Positions 12,756-35,906 of a stretch of DNA of 64,000 nt are shown piece by piece. Location of the stretch: the IMG/VR virus record IMGVR_UViG_3300021197_000592, positions 1 through 64,000 of that record. The stretch is one strand, 5' to 3'. How positions within the stretch are numbered: position 1 is the first letter of the stretch; each line of letters begins with the position of its first letter. A model generated the notes under the pieces. The model was given only the letters and a program-made list of their open reading frames with translations. It was not told the DNA's origin and ran no database searches. This DNA is from a virus. A program made the position numbers and the translations under genes.

Positions 12756-12818
12756 ATGAGTTGGTTCGACATCCTAAAAATAAGTGGACCGCCTAACATA
12801 TTCGGAGGTAAGGCCTGA
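12756..12818 (+). CDS. 20-aa tag-only micro-ORF MSWFDILKISGPPNIFGGKA
   Basis: Hand-translated; GAGGAGGGG upstream; stop overlaps terL ATG (TGATG). Confidence 0.65.
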   Translation: MSWFDILKISGPPNIFGGKA

Positions 12819-14260
12819 TGGAACTAGATGACATGGACTTCGTATCTGCGATGGACATGGAGTTGTCAAAGACATCGTTCCCTTACTTCTTCCAGAACGT
12901 ACTCGGCATGATGTTCCCACCATACATGGAAGAGTGGTTGGAATCCATGCAGAACACGGATAGGACTGTCATAATCTGTAGTCGTGACCACGGCAAGTCT
13001 GTTTTCATGCATTGTTGGGTGGTATGGAATCTAGTCTTCCAAGAACCGCCATATCAGATGCTATACATCTCATCGAACCAGAAGCAGACTCTAGTTCACA
13101 TGAGGGAGATTGACAGGTACTTCAATCATCCAGCACTAAAGAAGTTCCGACCCTCACGCAATTGGGCTATTGGTAACATACAACTCACAAACGGTAATGC
13201 GATACTTGAGAGGTCAGTAGGCTCTCAGATTCGTGGTCTTCACCCACAGGAGATTGTCATTGACGACCCCTTGAAGGAGTTCAGTCTATCAGCAATACAG
13301 AGAGTTACAGATTGGTTCTTCGGTGACATGATACCAACGCTTCACCATACATCCAACCTTCGTATGATTGGTACGCCATTCACATACACTGACATCTTTG
13401 CACAATTGGAGGAGAACCAAGCATACACCGTAACCAAGTATCCCTGTTTCAATGCATTGAACGAACCGCTTTGGCCTGAGCGTTGGGACCATGATGCACT
13501 CTTGCAGAGGAAGGCTGAGATAGGCTCTCTCAAGTTCACAAGGGAATACTTGTGCGTACCGATATCAACAGGTACTTCGTTGTTCAACCCTGAGTTCATA
13601 GAGAATTGCAAGAACAAGGAATACGTTCTGAAACTAGGGAATAGGAGGGATAAGGGATACAAGTATTACGTTGGGGTTGACCCAGCGATATCCACTGACG
13701 GTGACTACAATGTAATCACGGTGCTTGAGGTTGATGATGAGGCAAACAAGACAATTGTGCATGTTGACCGAGCCAAGAACGTTGAGTTCAGGGAGAACAT
13801 AGAGAAGATTAGATTGATTGGGAAGATATTCCAACCAGAGGTAGTTCTCTATGAGACTAACACATTCGCTAAGGCGTTCACTCAGGAATTGAGAAGCATC
13901 TCTGACTTGAACGTCAAGGACTTCGACACGACAAGGAAGAAGAAGCAGGAGATAATCTTGAACTTGCAGATGAACATAGAAAACAAAAAATTCAACTTTC
14001 CCTATGGCGATAACGCCAGCAGAAGGTTGACTAACCTCTTGATTGAGGAACTTTCTATGTTCAGCATCACGGACTCCGGTAGGTTTGAGGGAGTTGGTGC
14101 GCATGACGACTTGGTTATGAGCCTCGCTTTGGCTAATGCCGCTACCCAATCACCGGGGGAGAACTTTATTCTGCTAGACGACATGGACTTGTTTGATACG
14201 GCTCCGACATCGCCGGTAGGTAGTGGGATACCACCGGGTATTTTGGGATTGAATCTATAG
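12818..14260 (+). CDS. terL: terminase large subunit
   Basis: Walker A SRDHGKS, Walker B IVIDD, coupling motif GTP, nuclease VGVDPA ... HDDLVMS. Confidence 0.95.
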   Translation: MELDDMDFVSAMDMELSKTSFPYFFQNVLGMMFPPYMEEWLESMQNTDRTVIICSRDHGKSVFMHCWVVWNLVFQEPPYQMLYISSNQKQTLVHMREIDRYFNHPALKKFRPSRNWAIGNIQLTNGNAILERSVGSQIRGLHPQEIVIDDPLKEFSLSAIQRVTDWFFGDMIPTLHHTSNLRMIGTPFTYTDIFAQLEENQAYTVTKYPCFNALNEPLWPERWDHDALLQRKAEIGSLKFTREYLCVPISTGTSLFNPEFIENCKNKEYVLKLGNRRDKGYKYYVGVDPAISTDGDYNVITVLEVDDEANKTIVHVDRAKNVEFRENIEKIRLIGKIFQPEVVLYETNTFAKAFTQELRSISDLNVKDFDTTRKKKQEIILNLQMNIENKKFNFPYGDNASRRLTNLLIEELSMFSITDSGRFEGVGAHDDLVMSLALANAATQSPGENFILLDDMDLFDTAPTSPVGSGIPPGILGLNL

Positions 14261-15605: not shown

Positions 15606-17243
15606 ATGGCAGATGAAAAAAGAAGATTCAGAATAGGAAACCTATTTCGTAGGACAACTCCAAAACCAGCAGATAGAACAATATACAATCCGGGGATTCA
15701 GGAGAAGGACACATCGTATCTACTCACATCTCCTGTGATATACCACATAGCACAGCAATCAGTCATTGTCAGGACTTGCACTACTCAACTCAAGCAGGAG
15801 ATATTCAGAAGAGGATATCTGTGGGAAGAGAAATTCGTGAAGAGATGCAAAGACTGTGGTAAGGAACACCAGTCACCAGTTGAGCAATGTGTAGAGTGTG
15901 GCTCAATGAATCTAGAGAAGCCAAATCCACAACAACTGAAATACGCTCAGAAATTCCTAGGTGGCTACGTCAACAAATCAGAGCAGATGTTCATAGACGT
16001 ATTGAAGGAACTAGAGGATGACTTGAATATCATGGATGATGCATATCTTGTTATGGTGAAGGAATACTTCATAGATAACAACAACGAAATTCGTATGCAT
16101 CGAATCAAGGAGGTCTATCGTGGTGACCCCGTTTCAATGCACATCTATTCCAATGACACTGGTGAGAGAGGCAAAGGAGGATACATCTGTGTCAAACACA
16201 GGGACAGGATAGAAACAAGTCCCACTGGTCTTTGTGAAGAATGCAATTCCGAACTGCATCCTGTTCATTACGTGAACAGAGTCAAGGGAGAGGAACAGTA
16301 TTTCACGAAGGGTGAAGTGTTGCATTTCAGCAAATACTCACCCGGTAGGATGTACGGGCTATCACCAATCATAACGCTATGGAATCATGTTACGACTCTG
16401 ATAGCAATGGAGAACTACGTCAACTCATCATATACCAAGGCTAGAATGCCCAAGGGCCTACTAGCAGTGCAGACTAGGAACATCGATTCGATGAGGTCGT
16501 TTTGGCGAAGCGTCAAGGAGAAGATGGAGAAAGACCCACACTTCATTCCTGTGATGGGAATCGAAGCAGAAGGCGGTAAGGGTTCTGTCGAGTGGGTGAA
16601 GTTCATGGATAGCCTGAAAGAGATGGATTACATGTCTGTCAAGGATGACCTGAGAGATAGAATATCAGGGTTCTATGGAGTGAGCAAGGTATTCATGGCG
16701 GATAACTCTGCTAGTGGTGGGTTGAACAACGAGGGTATGCAGATACTCGTAACCAACCGAGCAGTCGAGATGGCTCAGACAATTTGGAACAACTATGTGT
16801 TCCCATTCATGACATCAGAGTTCGGTATAAGCGATTGGGAATTGAAACTACCACCATCCGAAGAGGAGGATGAGATTGCTAAACTGCGAAAGAGAGAGAT
16901 TGAGGTCAACGTAGCGGCGGCTATCAAGAATCTAGGGTTTGAGGTCAATATGGATGATGAGGGTAGATTCACCTACGTGAAGCCACCACAACCAGAAGAC
17001 CAACAACAAACAGATGACATCGAATTGGACCCATACGCTGGAACTAACATTGACCAATCACAACTCGGTCAGATGATGGAAACCGGAACTAGACCAACTG
17101 GCGAAGAAGCAGGTCAACCCGCGACTGTGAAAGGTAGAAACAAACCAAGCATGAGCGTTGGTCCCGACAAGAGATTCAGTGGTTTGCCAAGGGAAGCAGG
17201 GAATGAAAATGTCGATAGGCGTAGTGAGAGGCGGGTAGGTTGA
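15606..17243 (+). CDS. portal protein with Zn-ribbon insertions
   Basis: Position after terL; EVLHF...YGLSPI and RISGFYGV portal-like motifs; CKDC/CVEC and CVKH/CEEC. Confidence 0.9.
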   Translation: MADEKRRFRIGNLFRRTTPKPADRTIYNPGIQEKDTSYLLTSPVIYHIAQQSVIVRTCTTQLKQEIFRRGYLWEEKFVKRCKDCGKEHQSPVEQCVECGSMNLEKPNPQQLKYAQKFLGGYVNKSEQMFIDVLKELEDDLNIMDDAYLVMVKEYFIDNNNEIRMHRIKEVYRGDPVSMHIYSNDTGERGKGGYICVKHRDRIETSPTGLCEECNSELHPVHYVNRVKGEEQYFTKGEVLHFSKYSPGRMYGLSPIITLWNHVTTLIAMENYVNSSYTKARMPKGLLAVQTRNIDSMRSFWRSVKEKMEKDPHFIPVMGIEAEGGKGSVEWVKFMDSLKEMDYMSVKDDLRDRISGFYGVSKVFMADNSASGGLNNEGMQILVTNRAVEMAQTIWNNYVFPFMTSEFGISDWELKLPPSEEEDEIAKLRKREIEVNVAAAIKNLGFEVNMDDEGRFTYVKPPQPEDQQQTDDIELDPYAGTNIDQSQLGQMMETGTRPTGEEAGQPATVKGRNKPSMSVGPDKRFSGLPREAGNENVDRRSERRVG

Positions 17244-17362
17244 GTCAACTGCTTGAAACCGCGAGAAGATGGAAAGAAGAGATTGACAAACTGAATAAAG
17301 AGACAGACGAGAGAATCAGATTATTTACGGAGGAAGGAATATGGAATGGCAAGAAATATTGA
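17240..17362 (+). CDS. 40-aa helical microprotein (MSQLLETARRWKEEIDK...)
   Basis: Hand-translated; TTG start overlapping the portal stop, fills the gap. Confidence 0.45.
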   Translation: MSQLLETARRWKEEIDKLNKETDERIRLFTEEGIWNGKKY

Positions 17363-17466
17363 AAAAAAATGCAAAGCCCGATTTTATTGACATCGATGGA
17401 GATGGTGATAAGGAAGAGCCAATGCAGGATGCAGTAAAAGACAAGAAAGGTGAAACAAATGAGTGA
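17341..17466 (+). CDS. 41-aa W-tagged microprotein (MEWQEILKK) with DxDxDG Ca-binding-like loop
   Basis: Hand-translated MEWQEILKKNAKPDFIDIDGDGDKEEPMQDAVKDKKGETNE; GGAGGAAGG upstream. Confidence 0.75.
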   Translation: MEWQEILKKNAKPDFIDIDGDGDKEEPMQDAVKDKKGETNE

Positions 17467-17683
17467 AAAGAAAGGCGTAAGACAATTGGAAAGAGAATTG
17501 AAAGCAGCAAGGAATGAAGAAAGAAGGGACCATGAGAACAGAATCACGAAGAACCGTGATTTCTCAATAGGAGGCATTGACCCAAATACAAAGTCAAAGC
17601 CACTACCCAACTCCACTGATATCCCTGATGCTATTCTCCTGCCTAAGAAGAAGAAGTTGAAGAAAGAAAACATTCCGTGGTGA
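17459..17683 (+). CDS. basic hypothetical protein
   Basis: ATG 17459 after AGGTGA. Confidence 0.65.
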   Translation: MSEKKGVRQLERELKAARNEERRDHENRITKNRDFSIGGIDPNTKSKPLPNSTDIPDAILLPKKKKLKKENIPW

Positions 17684-17687
17684 TTGA

Positions 17688-18875
17688 ATGTCATTCATGG
17701 ATATCCTCAGAAAGCAGGGTGAGGAAGTCCAATCTGACATATACGACTTGAAGGGAAACTTAACCCCCAAGCAATTGAGAGATGCGGCAGAGACATGGGA
17801 GAAGTACGGGGAGAACTTCGGTCCAAATCTGCTGACTCAACCAGCACCGCTGGAAGATAAGAGAGCAAGAGAAGGAGGAGACTTGAGAAACAATCCGGGT
17901 TTCATGGCCGATGCTACCAAAGCACTACAGATGATTGAGTCACTACCATCGGCTTCCACAGAAGAGGAGTTGATGTCTCCTGAATATCAAGCAAGAGGAG
18001 AGATAGAGGAAGTTCTAGAGATACTTCAAGAGAACTTCATCAAAGAAATAGAGAGAAGAGCAGGACAGAAGAAAACCTTCGTTAGTAGAAAGATGAATGC
18101 TGATAGCCTAGAGGAAATACTACGAATGGTTTCAAAGTTCAACAGTCCAGCAGAGATGGAAGAAAAGTTTCCGAACAAGAAGAAGTTCGCAAAGGAATGG
18201 TCTACACAGTTTGCAACATTCAAGGATAAGATAAACGAGTTCCTCTATCTAGGTGAGAGAATAGCACAGCCCGTTCGTGAGGTGTATCTAGAGAATCCAA
18301 TCAGACTCGCTAGGTTCGATGATGACAAGAAGGAATGGATGCAAGAGGATGAACTAGGATACAAGATGTACAATGGCAAGACATCCAAGGAAGTATGGGA
18401 AGACTTGCTGAACTTCTTGGGTATGGAAGCAATGACACCATACGACAAGAAAGAATCCAGAAGCCGATTAGAGAGATACGTTCGATTCGATGAGAGCAAC
18501 TTAGATGAACTATTCAATCTCATTAAAGAAGACAACTTGATGGAAGCATTTCCTGCTCTGTTTGAAGAATCATCATTCGATGACTTGGAGAGCGCATTAT
18601 ACTTACTTATAGAAGACGTAATGGAAATGCATGACGACTACTTGGATGCAGACGGAGAGGATGAAAAGATAGAGGAGAACATCGAGAAGTACCTCACAGC
18701 AATAGAGTTCCTGATGCATGTGTTTGAGATAACGAGAAGGGATGATTTCATCAACGATGGAGTTGTAAACGAACTCAAGGAGATAGAGGAACCAAGGCCA
18801 TTCCAGTTCCACAGGGAATTCAGAAACATAATAGAGGCCCATGATTTGTACGATGAAGAGGAGGAAGACGAGTGA
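17688..18875 (+). CDS. acidic protein with tag variant (MSFMDILRK)
   Basis: 395-aa ORF with GGTGA SD. Confidence 0.75.
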   Translation: MSFMDILRKQGEEVQSDIYDLKGNLTPKQLRDAAETWEKYGENFGPNLLTQPAPLEDKRAREGGDLRNNPGFMADATKALQMIESLPSASTEEELMSPEYQARGEIEEVLEILQENFIKEIERRAGQKKTFVSRKMNADSLEEILRMVSKFNSPAEMEEKFPNKKKFAKEWSTQFATFKDKINEFLYLGERIAQPVREVYLENPIRLARFDDDKKEWMQEDELGYKMYNGKTSKEVWEDLLNFLGMEAMTPYDKKESRSRLERYVRFDESNLDELFNLIKEDNLMEAFPALFEESSFDDLESALYLLIEDVMEMHDDYLDADGEDEKIEENIEKYLTAIEFLMHVFEITRRDDFINDGVVNELKEIEEPRPFQFHREFRNIIEAHDLYDEEEEDE

Positions 18876-21556: not shown

Positions 21557-24199
21557 ATGCCTCGTTCTGGTCTAGCATTTGAGAAGGAAGAAGACGGACT
21601 CACTAAGAGAGTCCTTGATTTCTTTGAGCGCACCAGATTCGCATACCTCTCAGCAAAGGCAGACCCATCTGAGTATGGGAAGAAATGGAAGGACATCGTC
21701 AAGAAGATTCGTGAGGACTTCGACCAGATGAGCAACTTCGCTCAGGAGTTGAAGGAGTACGTCACTGAGAAGATTCTGTTCGATGATGATGTCTATGATG
21801 CCAAGTCGGGAACTGCCGAGACTCTGTTCAAGGAAATAAAGGAGATGAGATTCAAGTCGGAGAAGATAAGCGACCCCTTCTCCAAGTTGCTAGGTGATGA
21901 TGTCATTGACACATTCATGGAGAAGCCTGACATCTTCATATCATTCATCCATTATGCGATGCGCTCCCATTCCAACAAGATGCCTGACAAGATATACGAG
22001 TCACAGAAACTCAAGCCCGACCAGATAACTCAGGGAACGATGGGACTTGACTTGAAGGTAGAAGACATTCCACTTTACATCATAGAGCATTACGGAGCAG
22101 AGGGGAAGGACACTCGTAGGGTAAAGAGCAAGTTCAAGTCGTCATTCTCTAGATTGAAGGAGATGTACAACGAGACTTACCCGGAGGACAAGTGGGATGC
22201 TCTCGTTGACTTGGATGTTGTGAAAGCGGAGAAGAGCGAGGAGGAGAAGCAGGAAGTTGACTTCCTCATACCCAACAAGCCGATGTATCGAATCTTTGAG
22301 ACTGATGACTTGAAGCAACTCAAGGGATTCAGTGGTGAGTGGCTCGTTCAGGAGAAGTACGATGGGATGCGAATACAGATTCACAAGGATGGAGACAGCA
22401 TCAAGATATACTCATTCAACAAGAAGGACATCACGGATAAGTGTCCATTGCAAGTCAAGGAGATGGAGAAGAAGAACTTCGGTGACTGCATACTCGATGC
22501 TGAACTCACCCTATTCCTAGAAGATGAGCCATTGCATCGTGCTGATACTGTGGCACATGTGTTCAAGAAGGAAACGAAGGGAAGGCTATCTGCTCACGTT
22601 TTCGACATCATGAAGCATGAGGGCAAGATGATTGCCGATGAGCCACTGAGGGAAAGAGTGAACATTCTCTTCTACCAGTACAGTTCTCATTCCACTGAGA
22701 ATCTAGCATTCCCATCCAAGAAGGACACAAGAATAGCAGACTCAATCAAGGAGGTCGAGGACTACTCTAAGGTGATAATGGAACTACCATCATCAGAGGG
22801 AGTCGTAATCAAGGACATAGAATCCACATACATCATAGGAAAGCAGAAGAATCCTAAGTGGATAAAATGGAAGAAGTTTGTTGACTTGGATGTCGTAGTA
22901 TTGGATTCCAAGAAGACTGCTAGTGGACTCTTCTCTTACACTATGGGAATAGGGCCAGTAAATGCTGAGACAGCAAGAACCTACAAGACCACTGAACTAG
23001 GAGATAAAGCATATCTTTCAGTTGGGAAGGCATTGAACACTAAGGAAAAGGTGGATGTCGGTGATATAGTCAGAGTCAAGGTAGACGAAGTGAAGAAAGG
23101 CAAGGATGGTTTCAGTCTCTATTCGGCCAAGGTTATCGAGATACCAGAGGTAACGGAGTCTGACAAGGTAGAAACTCTAGAGCAACTATCAACCAAGACC
23201 AAGAAATCTCTTGACTCGGCTATAGAGTTCATTGCTGGTAAAGCAGTTGGTGATAGATTCAAAGTGATGAGTGGAGTTCAAAATGCTGCTAAAGCAAAGA
23301 CTGCTGCTGATATCGCTAGAGATAAGAAGAAGAAGAAGGTCAAGAAAGGGTATTACATCACGGATGACATACACGGTACTGCTGAGATAATACTCAAGTC
23401 AGACCTAGATGGGTTTACCATCTACGGTTTCAGCGGTGATGACCTGATGCAGAAGAATGCTCTGTACAACATAGACATCTGGAAGGAGCAAGTTACTGAG
23501 ATACTCAAAACAAAGAGGTCAGAACTGAGGGTTGGAATAAGAAACGATATCATTGAGCATGGTGATGACCCCAAGCCATTCGACAAGATACTGGATTTCG
23601 TAGAAGAACACTACAAGGACACCTACGAAGAACTGTTTGAGATGAAGCCTGACAAACTCATGTCATGGTTGAAGAGACAAGAGGACATACAGTACGTTCA
23701 CCCGAACAAGTTCCAAGCAAGAGATGACGTTCTTGAGAAAGACATTGAAGAGTTGAAAAAAAAAGACACTCCTAACCAAGGTAAATTCAAGTTGTTCCAA
23801 CGTGAAGACGGAAACATAGACTTCGTAATCAGAGCAGGTGGGGAGAAGATGGCTTGGACAATAGACATAGAAGACACAGAGGATGTGTTCAATCTGTTCG
23901 GGAAGTCTGGTAAGTTCCCTGCAATTGTGGCAACTACTGTAAATGAAGAGAAACTACTAGATGCAGGTGACTTGGAACTAGGAGTTCAGAAGGATGGATA
24001 TCATGAGTATAGGTTGGATGGTGATAAGTTCCAGACCAGAATGCACGTGCGAGTTGTTCCATTGGATGAGCAAAAAACATGGTTGGCTTGGACCGGAAAG
24101 AAACAAGAGATGTTAGACAAGACAGATGATGACGGAGTATGGATGATATCAGAAGATAAGTATGCTGATTTGCCATTTCCCAAGAAAAATAGCGAGTAG
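21557..24199 (+). CDS. lig: ATP-dependent DNA ligase with long N- and C-terminal extensions
   Basis: Motif I QEKYDG, ILDAEL, VFDIM, EGVVIK, KWIKWK, followed by an OB-fold region. Confidence 0.92.
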   Translation: MPRSGLAFEKEEDGLTKRVLDFFERTRFAYLSAKADPSEYGKKWKDIVKKIREDFDQMSNFAQELKEYVTEKILFDDDVYDAKSGTAETLFKEIKEMRFKSEKISDPFSKLLGDDVIDTFMEKPDIFISFIHYAMRSHSNKMPDKIYESQKLKPDQITQGTMGLDLKVEDIPLYIIEHYGAEGKDTRRVKSKFKSSFSRLKEMYNETYPEDKWDALVDLDVVKAEKSEEEKQEVDFLIPNKPMYRIFETDDLKQLKGFSGEWLVQEKYDGMRIQIHKDGDSIKIYSFNKKDITDKCPLQVKEMEKKNFGDCILDAELTLFLEDEPLHRADTVAHVFKKETKGRLSAHVFDIMKHEGKMIADEPLRERVNILFYQYSSHSTENLAFPSKKDTRIADSIKEVEDYSKVIMELPSSEGVVIKDIESTYIIGKQKNPKWIKWKKFVDLDVVVLDSKKTASGLFSYTMGIGPVNAETARTYKTTELGDKAYLSVGKALNTKEKVDVGDIVRVKVDEVKKGKDGFSLYSAKVIEIPEVTESDKVETLEQLSTKTKKSLDSAIEFIAGKAVGDRFKVMSGVQNAAKAKTAADIARDKKKKKVKKGYYITDDIHGTAEIILKSDLDGFTIYGFSGDDLMQKNALYNIDIWKEQVTEILKTKRSELRVGIRNDIIEHGDDPKPFDKILDFVEEHYKDTYEELFEMKPDKLMSWLKRQEDIQYVHPNKFQARDDVLEKDIEELKKKDTPNQGKFKLFQREDGNIDFVIRAGGEKMAWTIDIEDTEDVFNLFGKSGKFPAIVATTVNEEKLLDAGDLELGVQKDGYHEYRLDGDKFQTRMHVRVVPLDEQKTWLAWTGKKQEMLDKTDDDGVWMISEDKYADLPFPKKNSE

Positions 24200-24229: not shown

Positions 24230-25444
24230 GTGTTAGCAACAACAGGAGTATTATTGAAAGCAGAAACTGATGCCGAATTCAGCATTCTAAAATCAGATAA
24301 TCTAGTCATTGGAGGGTATGCATCTATAGAAATTGTAGACAAGCAAAACGACCTAATAACACTAGAAGCATTGGAAGAAGCAGTCAATAAATACATGGAA
24401 GAAGAAAAATACAGAAATGTAATGTCAAATCATTCAAATGTTCAAGTCGGGGAGGTCGTAGAAAAATATCGAGATTCAAACGGTGTCTTACACAAAACAG
24501 GTGTAGATGACGTTGGATTCTATGTAGTAATCAAGATGCGCGATGACATCGAGAAGGCTAAGGAAATCTCAAGAGGTATTAGAAAAGGAACTCTACGGTC
24601 ATTTAGTATAGGTGGACAAGCAATATCAAAGAGACAGAGAAAATCTGAGGAGTTCGGGGAATACAACGAGATAGAAAAACTTGAGTTGCATGAAGTTACT
24701 GTCTGTGAAAAAGGAATAAACCCGGAAGCGAAATTCGACATTTTAAAAATGGAGGAAAAAAATATGAGTGAAAAACTGGAAAAAGCCCTAGAGGAGTTGA
24801 ACAGCCTGATGAAGCAGGTCAATTCGCTCCGAAAGGAAGAAGAAAAAGAAGAAATGGAGAAAGGTGACATGTCAGAGATGATGGACACTGAAGAAATGAT
24901 GATGACCGAGGATGAGAAGATGGGCGGCGAGATGAAAGCCGATGACGATGAAGACATGGAGGAGAAGGCTCTTGATGAAGATTCAACAAGAGACTTTGAG
25001 GCCGGTGAGGAAGTCGTTAGCGGTGGCAACCCCGTTGCAACACCTGCTCCTCTAAAGGTATCAAAGGGATTGGAGAACGCTGATTTCTCTACTCTCGACC
25101 TAACTGTGGAGAATGTCGAAAAGGCATATGAAGCATTCAAGGCCGAGAAGTTAGAGGCAATGGCGTATGATTCCCTTAACAAAGAATTCAGTACCCGTCT
25201 AGAGGCAGAACTATCCGTAAAGAAATCAGTCGCAGAGAGAGCAGAGTACGATGCTCGCAACGATGTGGCTGCTCTTAAGGAAGAGTTCGCTGAACTACGC
25301 AAGTCTCTTTCGGCAGAAAGCGATGAGATAAAGAAGGCAAAGGAAGTTGCATTTGAGATACCAGAAGGCATCCCAAGCAACCTACAAGAGGCTTCTGAGA
25401 TTTCATGGAGTGACATTCACAATATTGTGGAGAGGTATCAGTGA
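24230..25444 (+). CDS. HK97-type prohead protease fused to acidic coiled-coil scaffold
   Basis: IGGYAS...DKQND, putative catalytic H (MSNHS), S (RSFSIGG), ELHEVTV; directly upstream of capsid gene. Confidence 0.92.
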   Translation: MLATTGVLLKAETDAEFSILKSDNLVIGGYASIEIVDKQNDLITLEALEEAVNKYMEEEKYRNVMSNHSNVQVGEVVEKYRDSNGVLHKTGVDDVGFYVVIKMRDDIEKAKEISRGIRKGTLRSFSIGGQAISKRQRKSEEFGEYNEIEKLELHEVTVCEKGINPEAKFDILKMEEKNMSEKLEKALEELNSLMKQVNSLRKEEEKEEMEKGDMSEMMDTEEMMMTEDEKMGGEMKADDDEDMEEKALDEDSTRDFEAGEEVVSGGNPVATPAPLKVSKGLENADFSTLDLTVENVEKAYEAFKAEKLEAMAYDSLNKEFSTRLEAELSVKKSVAERAEYDARNDVAALKEEFAELRKSLSAESDEIKKAKEVAFEIPEGIPSNLQEASEISWSDIHNIVERYQ

Positions 25445-25455
25445 GGTGATTAAGT

Positions 25456-26826
25456 ATGAGCAATGGACATATTAGAACAATAACAGACCTAGAAGCCAGC
25501 ACCTATGGCATGGTCGGAGGAACAGGGAACGCCCTGCTGAAGTCAGCAGGAGTAGTTGGAGGATTTGGAACCCCGCACGACAATTCGGGCAACAACTTCA
25601 GCGGTGCAAGTGGGCTTGGTGACCTATACAACTTGCTATACGGACAGAAAGTCTGGTCAATGCTAAATCAGGAAGTCAACGCACTGTCGATGATTTCCAA
25701 GAGGCCATACACTTCCAGTGGTTGGAGGGTTCTCAAGAGCCGACCTGCTGGTGGTAGTGGAAACGCATTCGCGGTTGGTACACAAGACCCCGGTGCAACT
25801 ACGGCTGACCTATCTGGAATATCCGCAGACAAGATTGGTGGTGTTGGAGAGAACGCAGTGCTTGGAGGAGATGCTTCATTCAGAGCATTGTCTCCTGAGT
25901 ACACGAAACTCTACGTCAGTCCAAAGACTGTGGCACACCTCTTTGAGTTCTCTGAACTCGGAATGGAGTTGGCTGCAATCGATGACGGTGTTGGTGACAT
26001 ACGCTCCATAGTCCGTGAGGACATGGGTAAGCACCACGCAGAGGTTCAGAACAAGATGCTTCTGATGCCACTAGAGTTCTACGACAAGGCAGAGTATGAC
26101 GAGATTGAGGAGAACTACACTTCTCTATTGAAGATAGTCTCGTCTGCCGGTGAACTTGCTGCAATGGGTGACGCAGATATGGGTGAGCAGAGTGCTGCCG
26201 CCGCAACACTGCCAGTCACACAGACCAAGATTTTCGGTGCAACCAGAACTGTCGCTAACAGCAGTGGTGACTACACTGGTACTGAGGACTTCCTCTCAGC
26301 AGAGGTTGACTTCGGTGCAGGATATGCCGCTGGTAACGCAAGGGTTCTAACCCTGACCCTCCTAAACGACATGATTAGGAGAATCAGGCAGAACGGAGGT
26401 AACCCCAAGGTCATGATTACTGGATACGATACTATCCAGCACATCTCTGACCTACTACAGAGCCAAGAGAGGTTCATGGACAGGAAGGAAATCGTACCTA
26501 CCCACAACGGAGTTCGTGGAGTAAAGGGTGCAGAGGTCGGATTCAGAGTTGCAACATACTATGACATCCCACTGATTCCAGCCAAGGACATGACACAGAC
26601 TGGTAATGCGACTGCAAACAAGTTGAGTGACATACTCATCCTAGACACTGACCACCTGTGGCTATCTGTAATGAAGCCGACTCAGTATTTCGAGAACGGT
26701 ATCACCAACGGTGACCCATTCGGGGTCGGAAAACTTGGGAACCAAGGCATGTACCGCACAATGGGCGAGACAGGCTGTTCGTTCTTCAAGGGTCAAGGAA
26801 AGATTACCAACATAACGAGTGCGTGA
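25456..26826 (+). CDS. major capsid protein (HK97 fold)
   Basis: Size and position after protease; strong GAGGTGA SD; capsid-like C-terminal pattern (IPLIP...ILILDT...YRTMGE). Confidence 0.9.
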   Translation: MSNGHIRTITDLEASTYGMVGGTGNALLKSAGVVGGFGTPHDNSGNNFSGASGLGDLYNLLYGQKVWSMLNQEVNALSMISKRPYTSSGWRVLKSRPAGGSGNAFAVGTQDPGATTADLSGISADKIGGVGENAVLGGDASFRALSPEYTKLYVSPKTVAHLFEFSELGMELAAIDDGVGDIRSIVREDMGKHHAEVQNKMLLMPLEFYDKAEYDEIEENYTSLLKIVSSAGELAAMGDADMGEQSAAAATLPVTQTKIFGATRTVANSSGDYTGTEDFLSAEVDFGAGYAAGNARVLTLTLLNDMIRRIRQNGGNPKVMITGYDTIQHISDLLQSQERFMDRKEIVPTHNGVRGVKGAEVGFRVATYYDIPLIPAKDMTQTGNATANKLSDILILDTDHLWLSVMKPTQYFENGITNGDPFGVGKLGNQGMYRTMGETGCSFFKGQGKITNITSA

Positions 26827-27207: not shown

Positions 27208-27249
27208 GTAGCGGCCCTCTTCCTAGAGTAACAGGAAGGGGGTTGCTAC
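27208..27249 (+). terminator. 17-bp RNA hairpin (3 G-U pairs), loop AGAGTAAC; attenuator/stabiliser candidate
   Basis: GTAGCGGCCCTCTTCCT pairs with AGGAAGGGGGTTGCTAC; no U-tract. Confidence 0.65.
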
Positions 27250-27269
27250 CCCCAATTTATGGTGTGAAT

Positions 27270-27761
27270 ATGGCAGTAGTAAGAAGCAAAAACGGTGGTA
27301 AAATACAGTGGCAGGGATACACTTTCGATAGGAACGGTACGAGAGTTCCTACCAGAAAGGGTATTCTGCTTTACGGCGATAGAAACGTACATGTAGAATT
27401 CACAGCAGACGACAAGAGAGAGATTCAAAGGTTGATGGAACAGAATCCTCACAAGGTAAGACACCTATCCAAAATGCTGAAACTTCGCGGTCCTGATGGA
27501 AAGGGTGTAATGGATAACCTATATCCAAAATCTAGAACAGAGAAACTAATGGGAAGAAAGAAGGCTCCTGCACCTGAGATAGCAGAGGTAAAGGAAGAGC
27601 CAAAGGAAGAACCAAAGGAAGAGAAGAAGGAGGGAAAACCACTTCCTCCTGACTTAAACAAACTCACAGTGAAAGTCCTAAAGGAACTCTTAGAAGAAAG
27701 AGGACTTTCTACAGAAGGTAGAAAAGCAGACCTGATTAAGACACTAACTGAGGGAGCATAG
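27270..27761 (+). CDS. protein with C-terminal SAP (helix-extended-helix) domain
   Basis: LNKLTVKVLKELLEERGLSTEGRKADLIKTL; KEEP linker repeats. Confidence 0.8.
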   Translation: MAVVRSKNGGKIQWQGYTFDRNGTRVPTRKGILLYGDRNVHVEFTADDKREIQRLMEQNPHKVRHLSKMLKLRGPDGKGVMDNLYPKSRTEKLMGRKKAPAPEIAEVKEEPKEEPKEEKKEGKPLPPDLNKLTVKVLKELLEERGLSTEGRKADLIKTLTEGA

Positions 27762-28077: not shown

Positions 28078-28500
28078 ATGCCAAGTATAGATACAGACAC
28101 AAGATTAGTGATGACAATACTGTTCGTAGGAGCAGTCAGTGGAATAAACATTTACTTCTATTCCCAATACGGAATGAGTTTCCCATACGGAGCAGAGGAA
28201 CATGCTGTCCTCTTCGGTATATCCACCATAGGTGGGATTATGATTTTAAAAGCCCTATTCGATATGATTCTCAATGATTGGATTGAGGAATTCTTGCTAC
28301 AGAGGAGAATAGACGCTTATTGGTCTAGGAAGGCTAGGGAAGAGGAGAACAGAAAGAGAGTCAGGGACTCTTTCAGGCAGTTCCAACAGAACTGGAACCA
28401 GACAGTGGTTTCTCCCCCTAACGTCTATGGTGACAGCAACCTTCCAAACCTGAACCCAAACACACCGGGTTCTTTCCTAACCTTGGAGACAGAACAGTGA
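28078..28500 (+). CDS. membrane protein, two predicted TM helices plus charged tail
   Basis: LVMTILFVGAVSGINIYFY and AVLFGISTIGGIMILKALF. Confidence 0.75.
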   Translation: MPSIDTDTRLVMTILFVGAVSGINIYFYSQYGMSFPYGAEEHAVLFGISTIGGIMILKALFDMILNDWIEEFLLQRRIDAYWSRKAREEENRKRVRDSFRQFQQNWNQTVVSPPNVYGDSNLPNLNPNTPGSFLTLETEQ

Positions 28501-28513
28501 GGGAGTGATGTGA

Positions 28514-28738
28514 GTGGTCAGCGAAATCCTATTTGGAATGGATGAGTCAACACTTGCATATGACTTACAAAGAGCGCATTCTGCTGATATCTGGTTCTTA
28601 CGGGCTAGGTTCTGGTTTTGGGGGATAGTATCCTGTCTCTCTAGTTTTGTAGTGGGACAGGCCTTGGCTGTCTTTGGGATTAATACTCTATCCATAGCAT
28701 GGAATGGCTTAGTGGATTTCTGGAATCATCTGTGGTGA
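28514..28738 (+). CDS. small membrane protein
   Basis: FWFWGIVSCLSSFVVGQALAVFGI hydrophobic segment plus Trp-rich end. Confidence 0.7.
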   Translation: MVSEILFGMDESTLAYDLQRAHSADIWFLRARFWFWGIVSCLSSFVVGQALAVFGINTLSIAWNGLVDFWNHLW

Positions 28739-28742
28739 TATC

Positions 28743-29414
28743 TTGTCAGTAATGGCAGGATTTGCCATATTGATTGTCGAGGGACTTAACAAGATATACC
28801 AGAGAATACATGCAATTAACTTTGGAATATACGGTGCAAGTCAAGCGGGGAAGACAACATTGAATCACCAGTTGAGAACAAGGGGTGAGGTTCCGGATAT
28901 TCGACATAGGACAGAGGGATTGCAACGTGCAAGTAGGAAGTACGTCAAACTAGATGGAGATGCACATACAGTCAAGACGGCTGACTTAGGAGGACAGACG
29001 GTCTATTGGCAAGAGTGGATTAAGGACATGAAAGAGAGGAAAGTGAAGTATGTCATATTCATGATTGACGATAGACACATGAACAAGCATTATGACATCG
29101 AACAGCAATTGTGTTGGACGTTCCTAGTAGATACAATCTGTGAACCATATTGGCATCACAATGGTAAGAAGAAGAAAAAGAGGGAGGCAGATTACCCAAT
29201 TGCAGTGTCAATATGGGCTAACAAATATGACTTGTGGAAGGATAGGTATGAACACGATGGACCGATAGAAAGCCATCCTATTTTCGCCGCATTCAGAGAA
29301 GGAATGCAGAAGTTAAACGACAAGGGAATACCCTGTCACAAGTACATTGTAAGTGCCAAATCTGACTCGGAGATGGTTTACAGGGGTGTCCTAACAATGA
29401 TAAAGGACTACTAG
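28743..29414 (+). CDS. small GTPase, Arf/Arl/Sar-like (Ras superfamily)
   Basis: G1 GASQAGKT, G2 RTEG, G3 DLGGQ, VIFMID, G4 ANKYD, G5 SAK; hydrophobic N-terminal helix. Confidence 0.88.
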   Translation: MSVMAGFAILIVEGLNKIYQRIHAINFGIYGASQAGKTTLNHQLRTRGEVPDIRHRTEGLQRASRKYVKLDGDAHTVKTADLGGQTVYWQEWIKDMKERKVKYVIFMIDDRHMNKHYDIEQQLCWTFLVDTICEPYWHHNGKKKKKREADYPIAVSIWANKYDLWKDRYEHDGPIESHPIFAAFREGMQKLNDKGIPCHKYIVSAKSDSEMVYRGVLTMIKDY

Positions 29415-29426
29415 AGGTGAACCAGC

Positions 29427-30101
29427 ATGAGCATGCAGTTTACACCACCTAGCCTCATCGGGGCTAACTCGACAAACGTGACGAACAAAGCATTCATGGA
29501 TAGGGAAGACGCTGCAAGAGCAGCCGGTCCAGTGATGCAATATGAGTACAAAAGTCTCAAGCAAAAGAAACAATTGAAGGAGATAATGAAAGTCCTGAAA
29601 CCAGAGAACAAAACTTTCATGAAAGTACCTTACAAGTTCAAGTACAACATAAAGGACAGATGTGTAGTTTGTGGCACACATAAGGTTTGGGAGGCTGGTG
29701 ATAACCTAAGACCACCACTTCCACTGCACAAAGTAAGGAAGGGATATCCAATGAGAGGAACATACTGTGAGAAACACGCAGCAATACACCGACAATATGA
29801 GATGCTAGAACAGCAGATACTAGCAGAGGAACATGGTCTTTCTTTCAGTGCATACATTCCAAAGGCTCCTTCTATGCAATCCTTGAATCCCTTGGCGAGT
29901 GGTCCCCTAACAAGTCTGAAAGCAACCGACATTGCTTCCTTGAGTTCATTGGGATGGACTATTAAGCCTCCTTCATCCAATGAGGAAAGCAAAGAAGAGG
30001 AATTATTTCGCCTAACAGTGGAATCAGACACACTTAACTCAAGAGTGAAAACATTATTGACTGAGGGTGCTAAGGTTGCTGTAGTGGAGAGTGAGCAGTA
30101 A
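29427..30101 (+). CDS. hypothetical protein with CxxC...CxxH Zn site
   Basis: CVVC and CEKH; GAGGTGA SD. Confidence 0.7.
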   Translation: MSMQFTPPSLIGANSTNVTNKAFMDREDAARAAGPVMQYEYKSLKQKKQLKEIMKVLKPENKTFMKVPYKFKYNIKDRCVVCGTHKVWEAGDNLRPPLPLHKVRKGYPMRGTYCEKHAAIHRQYEMLEQQILAEEHGLSFSAYIPKAPSMQSLNPLASGPLTSLKATDIASLSSLGWTIKPPSSNEESKEEELFRLTVESDTLNSRVKTLLTEGAKVAVVESEQ

Positions 30102-30805
30102 TGGGATTATTCGGCACTAGTAACGGCACATTGATGAATACAATGGCGTCCAATCAACAATCACAGTTCAAAACAATGAACAATCTTTTGACCCTACAAG
30201 AGAACCATGTAGAGGATTTCTTTCAGTATCATGGTGAGGCTTTCCTTGCGGCTTTCGCACAACTTATCGAGGATACTGTGCAGAAGGTATTGGGACAAAT
30301 GCTCCCTCAATTGAAGTTCACAACTGACAGTGCTGGTGTAATGAATATGCATGCTGATGCTACCACAGCATTTGGCGCGATTACAGATGCTAACATAAAC
30401 CTAGACCTACAGACCCTCCTTGCTTCTGCAATTAACTCAGAGGTAGTAATGCAAAGGAGAATGGCAAAAGCACAGTATTTGGAATCTCAAGGGTTCGCTA
30501 CGCCAGCAGGAGAGCAGCAAATGTCGATGGGCGGCATGGGACAGATGAATCCGGGTGGAATAGACCCCTCACAGATACAAGGTAACAGTGCCGCAGTTGG
30601 AATGAACAATACCATGATGCAACAGCAACAGGCGTTCAACAACCAATCAGGATATCCTGTTCCACCTGCTGGATATGACAACATGAATAATCCATACTGG
30701 ATTGACCCTGTGTCAGGTCAGATGTCCTATACACCACCTGCAAGTGGTCTTGGTCTTGCTAATGCTATGAGTAAGGGCATTGCATGGGCTAAGTGGCTTG
30801 CATAG
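30101..30805 (+). CDS. Q/M/N/G-rich protein with amphipathic C-terminal helix
   Basis: Low-complexity C-half; ends GLANAMSKGIAWAKWLA. Confidence 0.7.
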   Translation: MGLFGTSNGTLMNTMASNQQSQFKTMNNLLTLQENHVEDFFQYHGEAFLAAFAQLIEDTVQKVLGQMLPQLKFTTDSAGVMNMHADATTAFGAITDANINLDLQTLLASAINSEVVMQRRMAKAQYLESQGFATPAGEQQMSMGGMGQMNPGGIDPSQIQGNSAAVGMNNTMMQQQQAFNNQSGYPVPPAGYDNMNNPYWIDPVSGQMSYTPPASGLGLANAMSKGIAWAKWLA

Positions 30806-34334: not shown

Positions 34335-35906
34335 ATGGCAACAGGAGCAACGTTAGGAAATCAAGTATGGGTAGGTGCAGGTTCAGCGGCAACAATGATA
34401 CCGGAGACAGATATCTACCTAGTTAGCGCAAATGCAGTAGCAACGAACAGGGCCAACGGATTTGAAACTGAGTTACAAGATATGGTTTCGGGGTTGTATG
34501 TAGGATGCATGGCAACTGTAACCGATGACAGTAATTCTGATTTAGAAACTGTAGCCATGATTACCGCCAATGACGGGGACAGCATAACTTTCGATAGGGA
34601 TGTCGCTAATGCAACTAGCAATGTCCTACATGTGAGAATACATGCCTTTGGCGCACCTGTCCCAGCAAAGACGGTGAACTTAGGAAGCGCAGACAGGCCA
34701 GTTCTTCTAGGAGACAACTGGTTGGGTCTTGTAAACAGCATCACTCCTCCAACGGTGGATGTCGAACTAGGAGAAGTTCCCCTAGCATTGACTGGTAGGA
34801 ACATGGGGTTCAGATTCAAGAAGGGAGAGACTGTCACTGGTGGTTCGATGGACTTGTCCATGAGCAACGGAATGTGGTTGTACTACGCACTAGGAAAAAT
34901 AAATTCGGTAGGCCACACAAAGGGTGCTGCCGCAGATACTAACACAAATGATTTCGTGACTTTAGGAGATAACTCCACAACCTTCGTAAGAGCAGAGAGT
35001 AACAAATTGTATCCTCCTGTTTTCGCTCCAAGTAGTCAAACTGATTATACTACGATGAAAGCACCGGCAAATGCCTTTGTTCTTGGAACCGGAGCGATAA
35101 CATATGGTTTCTCTGAACACAATGGGGATACTCTGCCCTCCTTCGCATTAGAAGTCACGATGGAGAAAGACGGTCTTGCCAATGCCAACTACTATGTTGG
35201 CTCTGAGGGGACAGACACGGATGACACCACTAGGCCATTCAAGGACATTTACTCAAGGATATTCACTGGATGTCAAGTGAACACACTAACGATGAACTTT
35301 GAGGAAGGGCAAGAACTCAAGGCAAACCTAGACCTAGTGAGTAGAAGAGCATTCGATTCTCCAAATGGCTATGTTCCCAAGAAGAACCAGAGAAGCACAA
35401 CCAGTCTCAAGAATTACTCAAGCACCGAGGCAGACAACCAACCATACCTTTTCTCTGAGGGGTTGATTCAGGTGTTCGGACAGGATGTCGCTAGAGTGAA
35501 GAGTGGAAGTCTGACTATAAACAACAACATCGCACCTCAAAGATTCATCGGCACATACGACAGAGGAATAACATCTGCTCACATTCCCGGTGCTAGGACA
35601 TACGAGGTTTCCCTGAATCTACTAGTGACCGACACGGATGTGTGGGATAACTTGAGAGCGGCTAACGAACATGGCTCTGGTGAGACACTAACTCTCAAAT
35701 TCACAAAATCAGCAAATGATATCATACAGATACAATTACAGGACTACATAGTGCAATCACTAGACGTACCCTTCCCCGAAGACAAGGGACCAATCGAGTA
35801 TGCAATCACGCTTACGGCTAGAACTCTAGTGGCGGGAAGCGGTGTGACTGGCACTCCTGCTGGAACGTTCTACAAAGGTAAGTGGGTAATTCAAAACATA
35901 GATTAG
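34335..35906 (+). CDS. major tail tube protein
   Basis: LPSFALE, FTGCQVNTLTMNF, SGSLTINNN tube-like motifs; followed by chaperone and tape measure. Confidence 0.8.
   Translation: MATGATLGNQVWVGAGSAATMIPETDIYLVSANAVATNRANGFETELQDMVSGLYVGCMATVTDDSNSDLETVAMITANDGDSITFDRDVANATSNVLHVRIHAFGAPVPAKTVNLGSADRPVLLGDNWLGLVNSITPPTVDVELGEVPLALTGRNMGFRFKKGETVTGGSMDLSMSNGMWLYYALGKINSVGHTKGAAADTNTNDFVTLGDNSTTFVRAESNKLYPPVFAPSSQTDYTTMKAPANAFVLGTGAITYGFSEHNGDTLPSFALEVTMEKDGLANANYYVGSEGTDTDDTTRPFKDIYSRIFTGCQVNTLTMNFEEGQELKANLDLVSRRAFDSPNGYVPKKNQRSTTSLKNYSSTEADNQPYLFSEGLIQVFGQDVARVKSGSLTINNNIAPQRFIGTYDRGITSAHIPGARTYEVSLNLLVTDTDVWDNLRAANEHGSGETLTLKFTKSANDIIQIQLQDYIVQSLDVPFPEDKGPIEYAITLTARTLVAGSGVTGTPAGTFYKGKWVIQNID

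Follow-up and report, generated by a model that had tools for sequence, protein, structure and literature searches.

What does a small GTPase with Arf-like motifs do among the late genes of a tailed archaeal virus, and what do the four genes packed around it contribute? The question is raised by positions 28,078 to 30,805 of the window, by which we mean the whole 64,000-nucleotide stretch analysed here (positions 1–64,000, the first 64 kb, of the 98,438-bp IMG/VR record IMGVR_UViG_3300021197_000592, with a CheckV completeness of 100% for the full record). Five plus-strand open reading frames (ORFs) lie there head to tail, with intergenic gaps of 4–13 nt or an overlap. An initial inspection of the letters, ORFs and translations (hereafter, the sequence-only reading) had described a GTPase that follows genes with two and one transmembrane (TM) helices and precedes a Cys/His gene, and this is the arrangement recovered from the ORFs:

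28078–28500, plus strand: Gene 1, 140-aa membrane protein (ORF translation and TM prediction; the start at 28078 fits the consensus of its relatives)
28514–28738, plus strand: Gene 2, 74-aa single-pass membrane protein (GTG start 4 nt after the Shine-Dalgarno (SD)-like GGAGTGAT)
28743–29414, plus strand: Gene 3, 223-aa divergent small GTPase (TTG start 4 nt after the SD-like GGTGAT; alternative ATG at 28752)
29427–30101, plus strand: Gene 4, 224-aa Cys/His protein
30101–30805, plus strand: Gene 5, 234-aa Q/N/M-rich protein (start overlapping the Gene 4 stop)

We find that this block is a virus-specific, strongly constrained five-gene operon-like cassette, and that Gene 3 encodes a real small GTPase of the Ras superfamily (TRAFAC P-loop, G1–G5 in order). 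The role that we tentatively favour for it lies in the egress of progeny virus.

The five genes are conserved and move together

To describe the conservation of the block, the best 80 of 190 viral contigs carrying a close GTPase were examined, the loci being chosen by GTPase similarity (lineage 1). All 70 loci that hold the five genes show them in the same order, on the same strand and with the same spacing. Median identity within this lineage is 80% for the GTPase (a figure biased by the choice of loci), 72% for both the capsid protein and Gene 4, 74% and 68% for the two membrane proteins and 66% for Gene 5, while that of the flanking genes is only 23–52%. The GTPase is under very strong purifying selection, with a ratio of nonsynonymous to synonymous substitution rates (dN/dS) of 0.014–0.03 against its relatives; the corresponding range for Genes 1, 2, 4 and 5 together is 0.01–0.2 (0.012–0.08 for Gene 1, 0.03–0.2 for Gene 2 and 0.08–0.10 for Gene 5).

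A profile search of 1.84 billion representatives returned only 81 GTPase-family matches at E ≤ 0.001, among them a few full-length, more distant clusters, three of which were placed in genomic context, adding three further lineages (2–4) in which the GTPase is ~30% identical to that of the window. Lineage 2 (P0133-type; 81 viral contigs) carries the same gene series followed by a sixth small two-TM gene, and hhalign shows homology of its proteins to those of the window for Gene 4 (96.5%, E 9e-10) and Gene 5 (94%, E 1e-7). Its capsid protein is 44–55% identical to that of the window, and its block lies ~22–24 kb upstream of the capsid gene on the same strand, rather than after it. In lineage 3 (P0132-type) all five genes are present, each matched by a hidden Markov model, and lineage 4 (P0129-type; metagenome contigs of at most 81 kb) likewise holds all five, with an extra orphan gene before the GTPase. 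In every lineage the two upstream genes carry TM helices, and the block is always on the strand of the structural (late) genes. Because its genome position differs in lineage 2 and, judged by the flanking genes, in lineage 4, the block has moved as a unit, kept intact while shifting within genomes. The sequence-only reading had named a lack of co-conservation among the neighbours beforehand as a refuting outcome, and the neighbours are co-conserved in all four lineages. Since the 70 close loci are colinear without exception and the series recurs in three further lineages, we treat the block as a module rather than a chance neighbourhood.

Outside these lineages the family is scarce. No GTPase-family match was found in 50,697 phage records, and only two in 185,579 species genomes, both on contigs of a single metagenome-assembled genome (MAG) labelled 'MAG: Maricaulis sp.' (L172 and L173; NZMJ01000101.1 and NZMJ01000024.1). 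These contigs carry a prohead protease, a capsid gene and the complete cassette, with a GTPase at 60–68% identity, and they are therefore probably mis-binned magrovirus DNA. The GTPase family is almost confined to marine viral contigs; P0189 and P0176 had no relatives in viral contigs. The magrovirus literature, as far as searched, describes neither the GTPase nor the cassette, which, together with the empty phage search, agrees with the earlier remark that such a protein is unexpected in a tailed prokaryotic virus.

Several additional features accompany the block in the other lineages. The sixth gene of lineages 2 and 4 follows Gene 5 and encodes 80–107 aa with two TM helices (loci L084–L163, e.g. 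L117:10172–10429; L188:8221–8532); the genome of the window itself yielded no homologue of it. Some lineage 2 contigs have a giant ORF immediately before the cassette (2,200–2,360 aa; L117:491–7102, L127:164–7096, L156:258–7106). Lineage 4 has two glycosyltransferase genes upstream of the cassette (L188:14–3117; GT4/GT1, 747 aa, and GT2, 286 aa; also in L179 and L184), several small TM proteins likewise upstream, and, between the one-TM gene and the GTPase, the orphan gene of ~250 aa (L188:5217–5999). The latter was considered as a second GTPase and rejected (hhalign probability 0.2%, no Pfam match). This region of lineage 4 resembles the published 'holin' region of Adrikavirales, a likeness only.

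A virus-restricted GTPase with Arf-like features

The functional elements of the GTPase were mapped on the AlphaFold2 (AF2) model and on alignments of its relatives, of which A1 comprises 16 sequences at 61–82% identity:

28749–28808, plus strand: N-terminal helix, residues 3–22, putative membrane anchor (AF2 secondary structure, hydrophobic moment)
28833–28856, plus strand: G1/P-loop, G31-x4-G36-K37-T38 (invariant in A1; G31 and K37 invariant in A3)
28911–28919, plus strand: switch I, T57-x-G59, of the Arf/G-alpha-type T-x-G (invariant in A1; aligns with T-I-G of GerdArfR1)
28983–29018, plus strand: G3 and switch II, D81-L-G-G-Q85, W89, W92 (D81-x-G83-G84, W89 and W92 invariant in A1)
29166–29183, plus strand: polybasic insert K142–R147 between G3 and G4 (alignments A1 and A2)
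29220–29231, plus strand: G4, N160-K161-Y-D163 (N160-K161-x-D163 invariant in A1)
29352–29360, plus strand: G5, S204-A205-K206 (invariant in A1)

The full G1–G5 set claimed for this protein is borne out, with motifs invariant across the 16 relatives and a predicted Ras-like fold. The AF2 model places a Ras-like core behind the N-terminal helix (predicted local distance difference test (pLDDT) 68, predicted template modelling score 0.71, switch regions below pLDDT 50), and a fold search with it gave Z 11–14 to many small GTPases over ~160–185 residues and a Foldseek E of ~1e-6; the match to TIGR00231 small_GTP (2e-4) fell below the cut-off. Position 85, a Gln in the window, is Glu or Asp in about a quarter of the relatives, and the polybasic insert is kept as a basic patch in every lineage. 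The hydrophobic N-terminal helix of the sequence-only reading is likewise recovered: residues 3–22 are predicted helical and residues 2–12 are uniformly hydrophobic (mean hydrophobicity 0.8, hydrophobic moment (muH) 0.15), with amphipathic character only at 10–23 (muH ~0.58). More distant family members have full TM-like segments at their N-termini.

How far the protein may be called an Arf is a separate matter. Its Pfam matches to SRPRB (2.4e-4), Arf (8.7e-4) and MMR_HSR1 (2e-3) are all below cut-off, and the Arf model (PF00025) scores it at 19.2 bits against a cut-off of 22.3, so it does not pass that curated family profile. Among 31 GTPase family members, 12 match Pfam Arf at E ≤ 0.05 (best 4e-9), and Ras, Roc and MMR_HSR1 each match 14. 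The Arf model is moreover unspecific, since it exceeds its cut-off in 12 of 14 ordinary prokaryote genomes; a six-frame search of the virus's own genome with it gave nothing at E ≤ 0.01. Structural comparison leaves the ranking tied, with Rag, G-alpha, Arl2, Arf6, SR-beta, Sar1, Arl13B, Hbs1 and Rab all between Z 14.2 and 11. The broad family profile, by contrast, has as its top genuine match in the Protein Data Bank (PDB) the Asgard Arf-related GTPase GerdArfR1 (8OUN/8OUM; 10.1101/2024.02.28.582541), with 8OUN, its full-length GDP form, aligned from the N-terminal helix to beyond G3 at E 7e-11 and 45 bits, and H-Ras ~7 bits behind. The Arf signatures T57-x-G59, D81-x-G-G-Q85 and W92, seven residues after the Gln, are present, and the Trp expected before the G3 Asp is absent (A80). 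Searches of the ESM Atlas returned viral clusters first and then bacterial and Asgard clusters partly labelled Arf, which we take as a lead only; P0199 is a singleton with a Pfam Arf label, and a few homologues bear the JGI pipeline label 'GTPase SAR1 family protein'.

Because the Pfam cut-off is missed, Ras is close behind and the fold ranking is tied, we use the term Arf-like rather than Arf: by sequence, the protein appears to represent a new virus-restricted family of the Ras superfamily whose nearest relatives are Arf-like GTPases, with Arf membership only a likeness. The Arf/Arl-type details noted earlier (T-x-G, DLGGQ, Trp, NKxD and SAK) are therefore retained as motifs, and the family assignment that they seemed to imply is not.

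Four partner proteins without useful family matches

Gene 1 has two predicted TM helices (~9–27 and ~42–60) followed by a highly charged helix (19 of the 40 residues after TM2 are charged) and a Q/N/P-rich tail. It answers to the description of holins (PMC10791045) as proteins of small size that contain one TM helix or more and whose C-terminus is hydrophilic and charged, a description so generic that agreement with it is no proof of function. We accordingly call Gene 1 holin-like in predicted architecture only: it has no Pfam, PHROG or NCBIfam match at E ≤ 0.1, no PADLOC match and no homology to a described holin family, and its neighbours are the GTPase block, with no adjacent lysin. Gene 2 combines a conserved N-terminal part of ~30 aa with a TM helix (~35–53) and a Trp-rich C-terminal end, at 53–95% identity across 80 relatives. 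These two are the only small predicted membrane proteins encoded in the plus-strand late block of this genome.

Gene 4 contains the pattern C79-x2-C82 ... C114-x2-H117, in which C79, G83, G106, C114 and H117 are invariant across 38 sequences from two lineages (alignment A4), and zinc binding is probable from this arrangement. In the model, its core (~40–140; AF2, pLDDT 73–88) opens with a helix, continues with small beta hairpins that hold the Cys/His ligands and ends in a long helix. No solved fold matched this core (VIA best Z 4.4, to generic helical hairpins; Foldseek none at E ≤ 0.001), and all of its 542 homologues are marine proteins that carry neither a name nor a Pfam domain, so that, as modelled, Gene 4 is an orphan in both fold and family. 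An ArfGAP zinc finger was considered for it, with no Pfam match and no fold match above Z 4.4; the spacing is C-x2-C-x31-C-x2-H, longer in other lineages, as against the ArfGAP CX2CX16CX2C with its catalytic Arg. When the GTPase (with GTP and Mg) and the Gene 4 core (37–145) were predicted as a complex, the score was 0.00, which is not evidence either way.

Gene 5 consists of a conserved N-terminal domain (~36–131), a Q/N/M/G/P-rich low-complexity middle (136–215) and a strongly conserved aromatic, Ala-rich C-terminal peptide (216–234; 30746–30802). Its Q+N+M content is 27% overall and 36% in the middle segment, against 11% in neighbouring genes, in keeping with the Q/M/N-rich character first assigned to it. 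The amphipathic C-terminal helix assigned at the same time fared less well, as the peptide is only weakly amphipathic (muH 0.24–0.32). A search of the ESM Atlas with Gene 5 gave no usable match. Across the cassette, PHROGs produced no match to the five genes except one at E 0.045, PADLOC no relevant defence or anti-defence match, and NCBIfam only small_GTP, below cut-off.

The cassette lies in the late block of a magrovirus

Magroviruses are recognised by a tailed-virus genome of ~65–100 kb with structural and archaeal-type replication modules and a second ATP-dependent DNA ligase inside the structural module, and are assigned to Marine Group II archaea (PMC5434244). Genome size, structural genes, opposite-strand replication genes and the structural-module ligase are all present here; because this second ligase is embedded among the structural genes of a ~100-kb genome that also holds an archaeal-type replication module, the genome is that of a magrovirus (order Magrovirales). 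The structural landmarks are as follows:

12818–14260, plus strand: terminase
15606–17243, plus strand: portal
21557–24199, plus strand: ATP-dependent DNA ligase fusion, 880 aa, beside the prohead protease gene
24230–25444, plus strand: S78 prohead protease
25456–26826, plus strand: SU10-type major capsid protein
34335–35906, plus strand: tail tube-like protein (Phage_tube_2), the first recognisable tail gene downstream

The rest of the genome carries, on the opposite strand, a family B DNA polymerase (PolB), an RFC-like ATPase, a second complete ATP-dependent ligase and ribonucleotide reductase; this ligase is of complete archaeal type and sits in the replication module (L082:17137–18666, minus strand). 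Among named capsid proteins, the closest (23% identity) come from the haloarchaeal Druskaviridae, a kinship that agrees with the published literature. The stretch is present in 20 DNA sequencing runs from 10 marine studies, with no RNA run among those listed.

Placement of the cassette between head and neck genes, as the sequence-only reading had it, holds in this lineage alone, where the capsid gene lies upstream and the "neck" label rests on position; elsewhere the block is ~22–24 kb upstream of the capsid gene. The 365-aa gene downstream of the cassette, for example, matches only phrog_17057 (function not assigned), so "neck genes" is here a label by position only.

Three further observations concern the surroundings. 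A 149-aa ORF with four predicted TM helices and without a Pfam match (17245–17694, minus strand) fills the gap between the portal end (17243) and the start of the next plus-strand gene (17688), and is the sole minus-strand ORF of such kind within the late plus-strand block. A G+C-rich hairpin with a 6-bp stem and a 4-nt loop (27238–27253), between a 119-aa gene and a SAP-domain gene (27243–27761), is the only strong terminator-like site near the cassette and lies upstream of it. A sigma-70 promoter scan found fewer sites than in shuffled sequence, with a model not applicable to archaea.

A candidate GTP switch for virus egress, and its rivals

TM helices in the upstream genes, the hydrophobic N-terminus of the GTPase and its conserved polybasic loop together give the cassette a membrane character, and tight gaps with SD-like motifs, along with the constant placement on the structural-gene strand, argue for late expression. 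Ranked against one another, the readings that follow have egress first and ArvA-like remodelling second, with exclusion or anti-defence, morphogenesis and SR-beta-like targeting lower.

The reading ranked first, which we hold tentatively and at somewhat less than an even chance, is that the cassette most likely controls where and when the host membrane is breached for progeny release. Made with the late (virion) genes, the five products would assemble at the cytoplasmic side of the host membrane into a complex switched by GTP. The GTPase would dock there through its N-terminal helix and basic loop, beside the two small integral membrane proteins, and the cytoplasmic parts (the charged tail of Gene 1, the N-terminus of Gene 2, the GTPase and Genes 4 and 5) would meet on the inner membrane face. 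Gene 4 may serve as regulator or effector of the GTPase and Gene 5 as a multivalent scaffold; the pore or lesion itself would be formed by Gene 1, with its two TM helices and charged C-terminal tail, and the GTPase would time or license the breach. In lineage 2 the placement of the block recalls lambda, whose lysis genes open the late operon. Archaeal tailed viruses lyse their hosts, yet the main players in their egress are completely uncharacterised (PMC10791045).

The link to egress is the weakest step of this proposal, and several points weigh against it. The partner proteins have no match to holin, spanin or endolysin families in Pfam or PHROGs; the TM count of Gene 1 varies between one and two among lineages, unlike a fixed holin class; and the variable catalytic residue (Q/E/D) means that the switch may be unusual or slow. 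We know of no lysis system with a GTPase. An assembly role would be equally compatible with a position in the late block, the host is uncultured, and the function is inferred from architecture and position.

The best placed of the alternatives, if unlikely in itself, is membrane remodelling of the ArvA kind rather than lysis, in which insertion of the GTP-form helix, together with scaffold and membrane partners, would bend or vesiculate the host membrane. The outcome might be a replication or assembly site, receptor shedding or vesicles, with the Cys/His protein as an off switch akin to a GTPase-activating protein (GAP). A cellular precedent with the same logic is the ArvA-ArvB-ArvC operon, which joins an amphipathic-helix small GTPase to a Zn-ribbon protein proposed as a GAP (PMC10927574). 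ArvA, like the viral GTPase, is annotated MMR_HSR1 with Arf as its closest profile, the best solved relative of the viral protein is a membrane-binding Asgard ArfR, and Q/N-rich low-complexity regions occur in three cassette proteins. Set against this are the lack of any match between the cassette proteins and Pfam OapC or OapB, a zinc protein with neither a known fold nor ArfGAP-type spacing, and a naked tailed virion that requires no budding.

We think it rather unlikely that the cassette goes further still, as a virus-borne membrane machine complete in itself that relies on a GTP switch of the Arf/ArvA type and both deforms and ruptures the archaeal membrane. Its parts would be the anchored GTPase, its own zinc-type regulator, a low-complexity coat-like scaffold and the small membrane proteins. 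If true, the egress system long sought in archaeal tailed viruses would have been found, and with it the first lysis system of any prokaryotic virus to be timed by a GTPase; Arf-like membrane switches with partners of their own would then be in circulation among archaeal viruses, beyond the Asgard lineage.

Host take-over or protection at the membrane, with the block as a superinfection-exclusion, receptor-masking or anti-defence module riding in the late operon, is distinctly unlikely. Small membrane proteins of phage late regions often serve exclusion, the block moves between genome positions as a unit, like an accessory module, and in lineage 4 it stands beside glycosyltransferases, which act on surface glycans. 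Accessory genes, however, are usually patchy and fast-evolving, whereas this block is present in every related contig examined that has enough flank and its GTPase is conserved at least as well as the capsid protein (median 80% versus 72%, a figure biased by the selection of loci on GTPase similarity); nor did PADLOC give a match.

In a further reading, the GTPase and its partners would be packaged proteins, or would act in virion morphogenesis by chaperoning, at the membrane, the completion of heads, the joining of heads to tails or the assembly of tails. The location between the capsid gene (25456–26826) and the tail tube gene (34335–35906) speaks for this in the present lineage only, as the block is ~22–24 kb from the capsid gene in other lineages; no GTPase homologue is detectable in the related haloarchaeal tailed viruses, whose capsid is 23% identical, and two of the five proteins are integral membrane proteins. 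We therefore regard a morphogenetic role as very unlikely.

Finally, SR-beta-like targeting, in which ribosomes or nascent viral membrane proteins would be brought to the membrane by an Arf-like GTPase anchored there, is extremely improbable: SRPRB is the best Pfam match of the GTPase (E 2.4e-4), SR-beta structures are among those tied for the highest ranks by fold (Z 13.3, 12.7 and 11.7) and SR-beta carries an N-terminal membrane anchor, but the match is below cut-off and shown by only 10 of 31 family members, no SR-alpha/SRX-like or longin partner was found, and the G3 motif DxGGQ/E differs from the DLPGH of SR-beta.

Returning to egress control as the preferred reading, the cassette offers a compact, deeply conserved five-protein candidate for the release of archaeal tailed viruses, with function inferred, in a group reported among the most abundant viruses of the surface ocean (PMC5434244; PMC11706807). 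The published putative holin system belongs to a different order of Poseidoniales viruses (PMC11706807).

Comparison with known systems

Known holin cassettes (class II holins; lambda S-R-Rz) share with the viral block small membrane proteins with a charged, cytoplasmic C-terminal tail in a late unit, and in lineage 2 the block, too, stands at the head of a late transcription unit. They differ in that the viral block contains no endolysin or spanin and has no holin-family homology, and in that its TM number varies. To our knowledge, no lysis cassette includes a GTPase, a zinc protein or a low-complexity scaffold.

Two individual GTPases invite comparison. SR-beta resembles the viral protein in having an Arf-like G domain behind an N-terminal anchor, in being its best Pfam match and in structural Z scores of 11.7–13.3, and is set apart by the sub-threshold match, another G3 motif and the lack of an SR-alpha-like partner. 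The Mimivirus Rab GTPase (5XC5; fold match Z 11.7, rank 24) is likewise a virus-encoded switch of the Ras superfamily; it is, however, a clear Rab of a giant eukaryotic virus, whereas the family described here belongs to a tailed archaeal virus.

Likeness to GerdArfR1 and the Arf family extends over the N-terminal helix before the G domain, the T-x-G and DxGGQ motifs, the W seven residues on and NKxD. The differences are nonetheless considerable: identity in structural alignments is 13–19%, the viral interswitch is ~7 residues longer than that of GerdArfR1, a polybasic insert of ~20 residues is present and the Trp before the G3 Asp is not, the N-terminal helix starts with a hydrophobic, not an amphipathic, half, many relatives have Glu or Asp in place of the catalytic Gln, and the protein is virus-encoded with unrelated partners.

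The closest parallel in organisation is the ArvA-ArvB-ArvC (OapABC) GTPase operon of Haloferax volcanii, which is required for extracellular vesicle formation (PMC10927574). Both systems pair a small GTPase of the archaeal world, bearing an N-terminal membrane helix, with a zinc-binding protein in one operon (zinc binding being probable on the viral side), and in each case the site of action, established or proposed, is the cytoplasmic membrane. Beyond this, the viral block includes a Q/N-rich protein and two or three small membrane proteins, and Thermoplasmatota are not among the phyla listed with most ArvA homologues (PMC10927574). Identity of the cassette with OapABC was considered and rejected, as no match to OapB (DUF2073, PF09846) was found in the genome and none to OapC (DUF2072, PF09845) in the block; an OapC search with 38 Gene 4 homologues gave none at E ≤ 1. 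A weak OapC-type Zn-ribbon match outside the window, in the replication module (80360–80575, minus strand; E 5e-4, below cut-off, interrupted by an internal TAG), probably arose by chance. Any kinship with ArvA would be remote, because only 81 of 1.84 billion representatives match the viral family at E ≤ 0.001, and the relation to ArvABC is best regarded as one of analogy, not membership. Taken together, Arf-like membrane-anchored switches with dedicated partners, so far a matter of eukaryotes, Asgard archaea (ArfR) and Euryarchaeota (ArvA), now have a counterpart in a tailed virus, where the switch is accompanied by partner proteins without a known fold.

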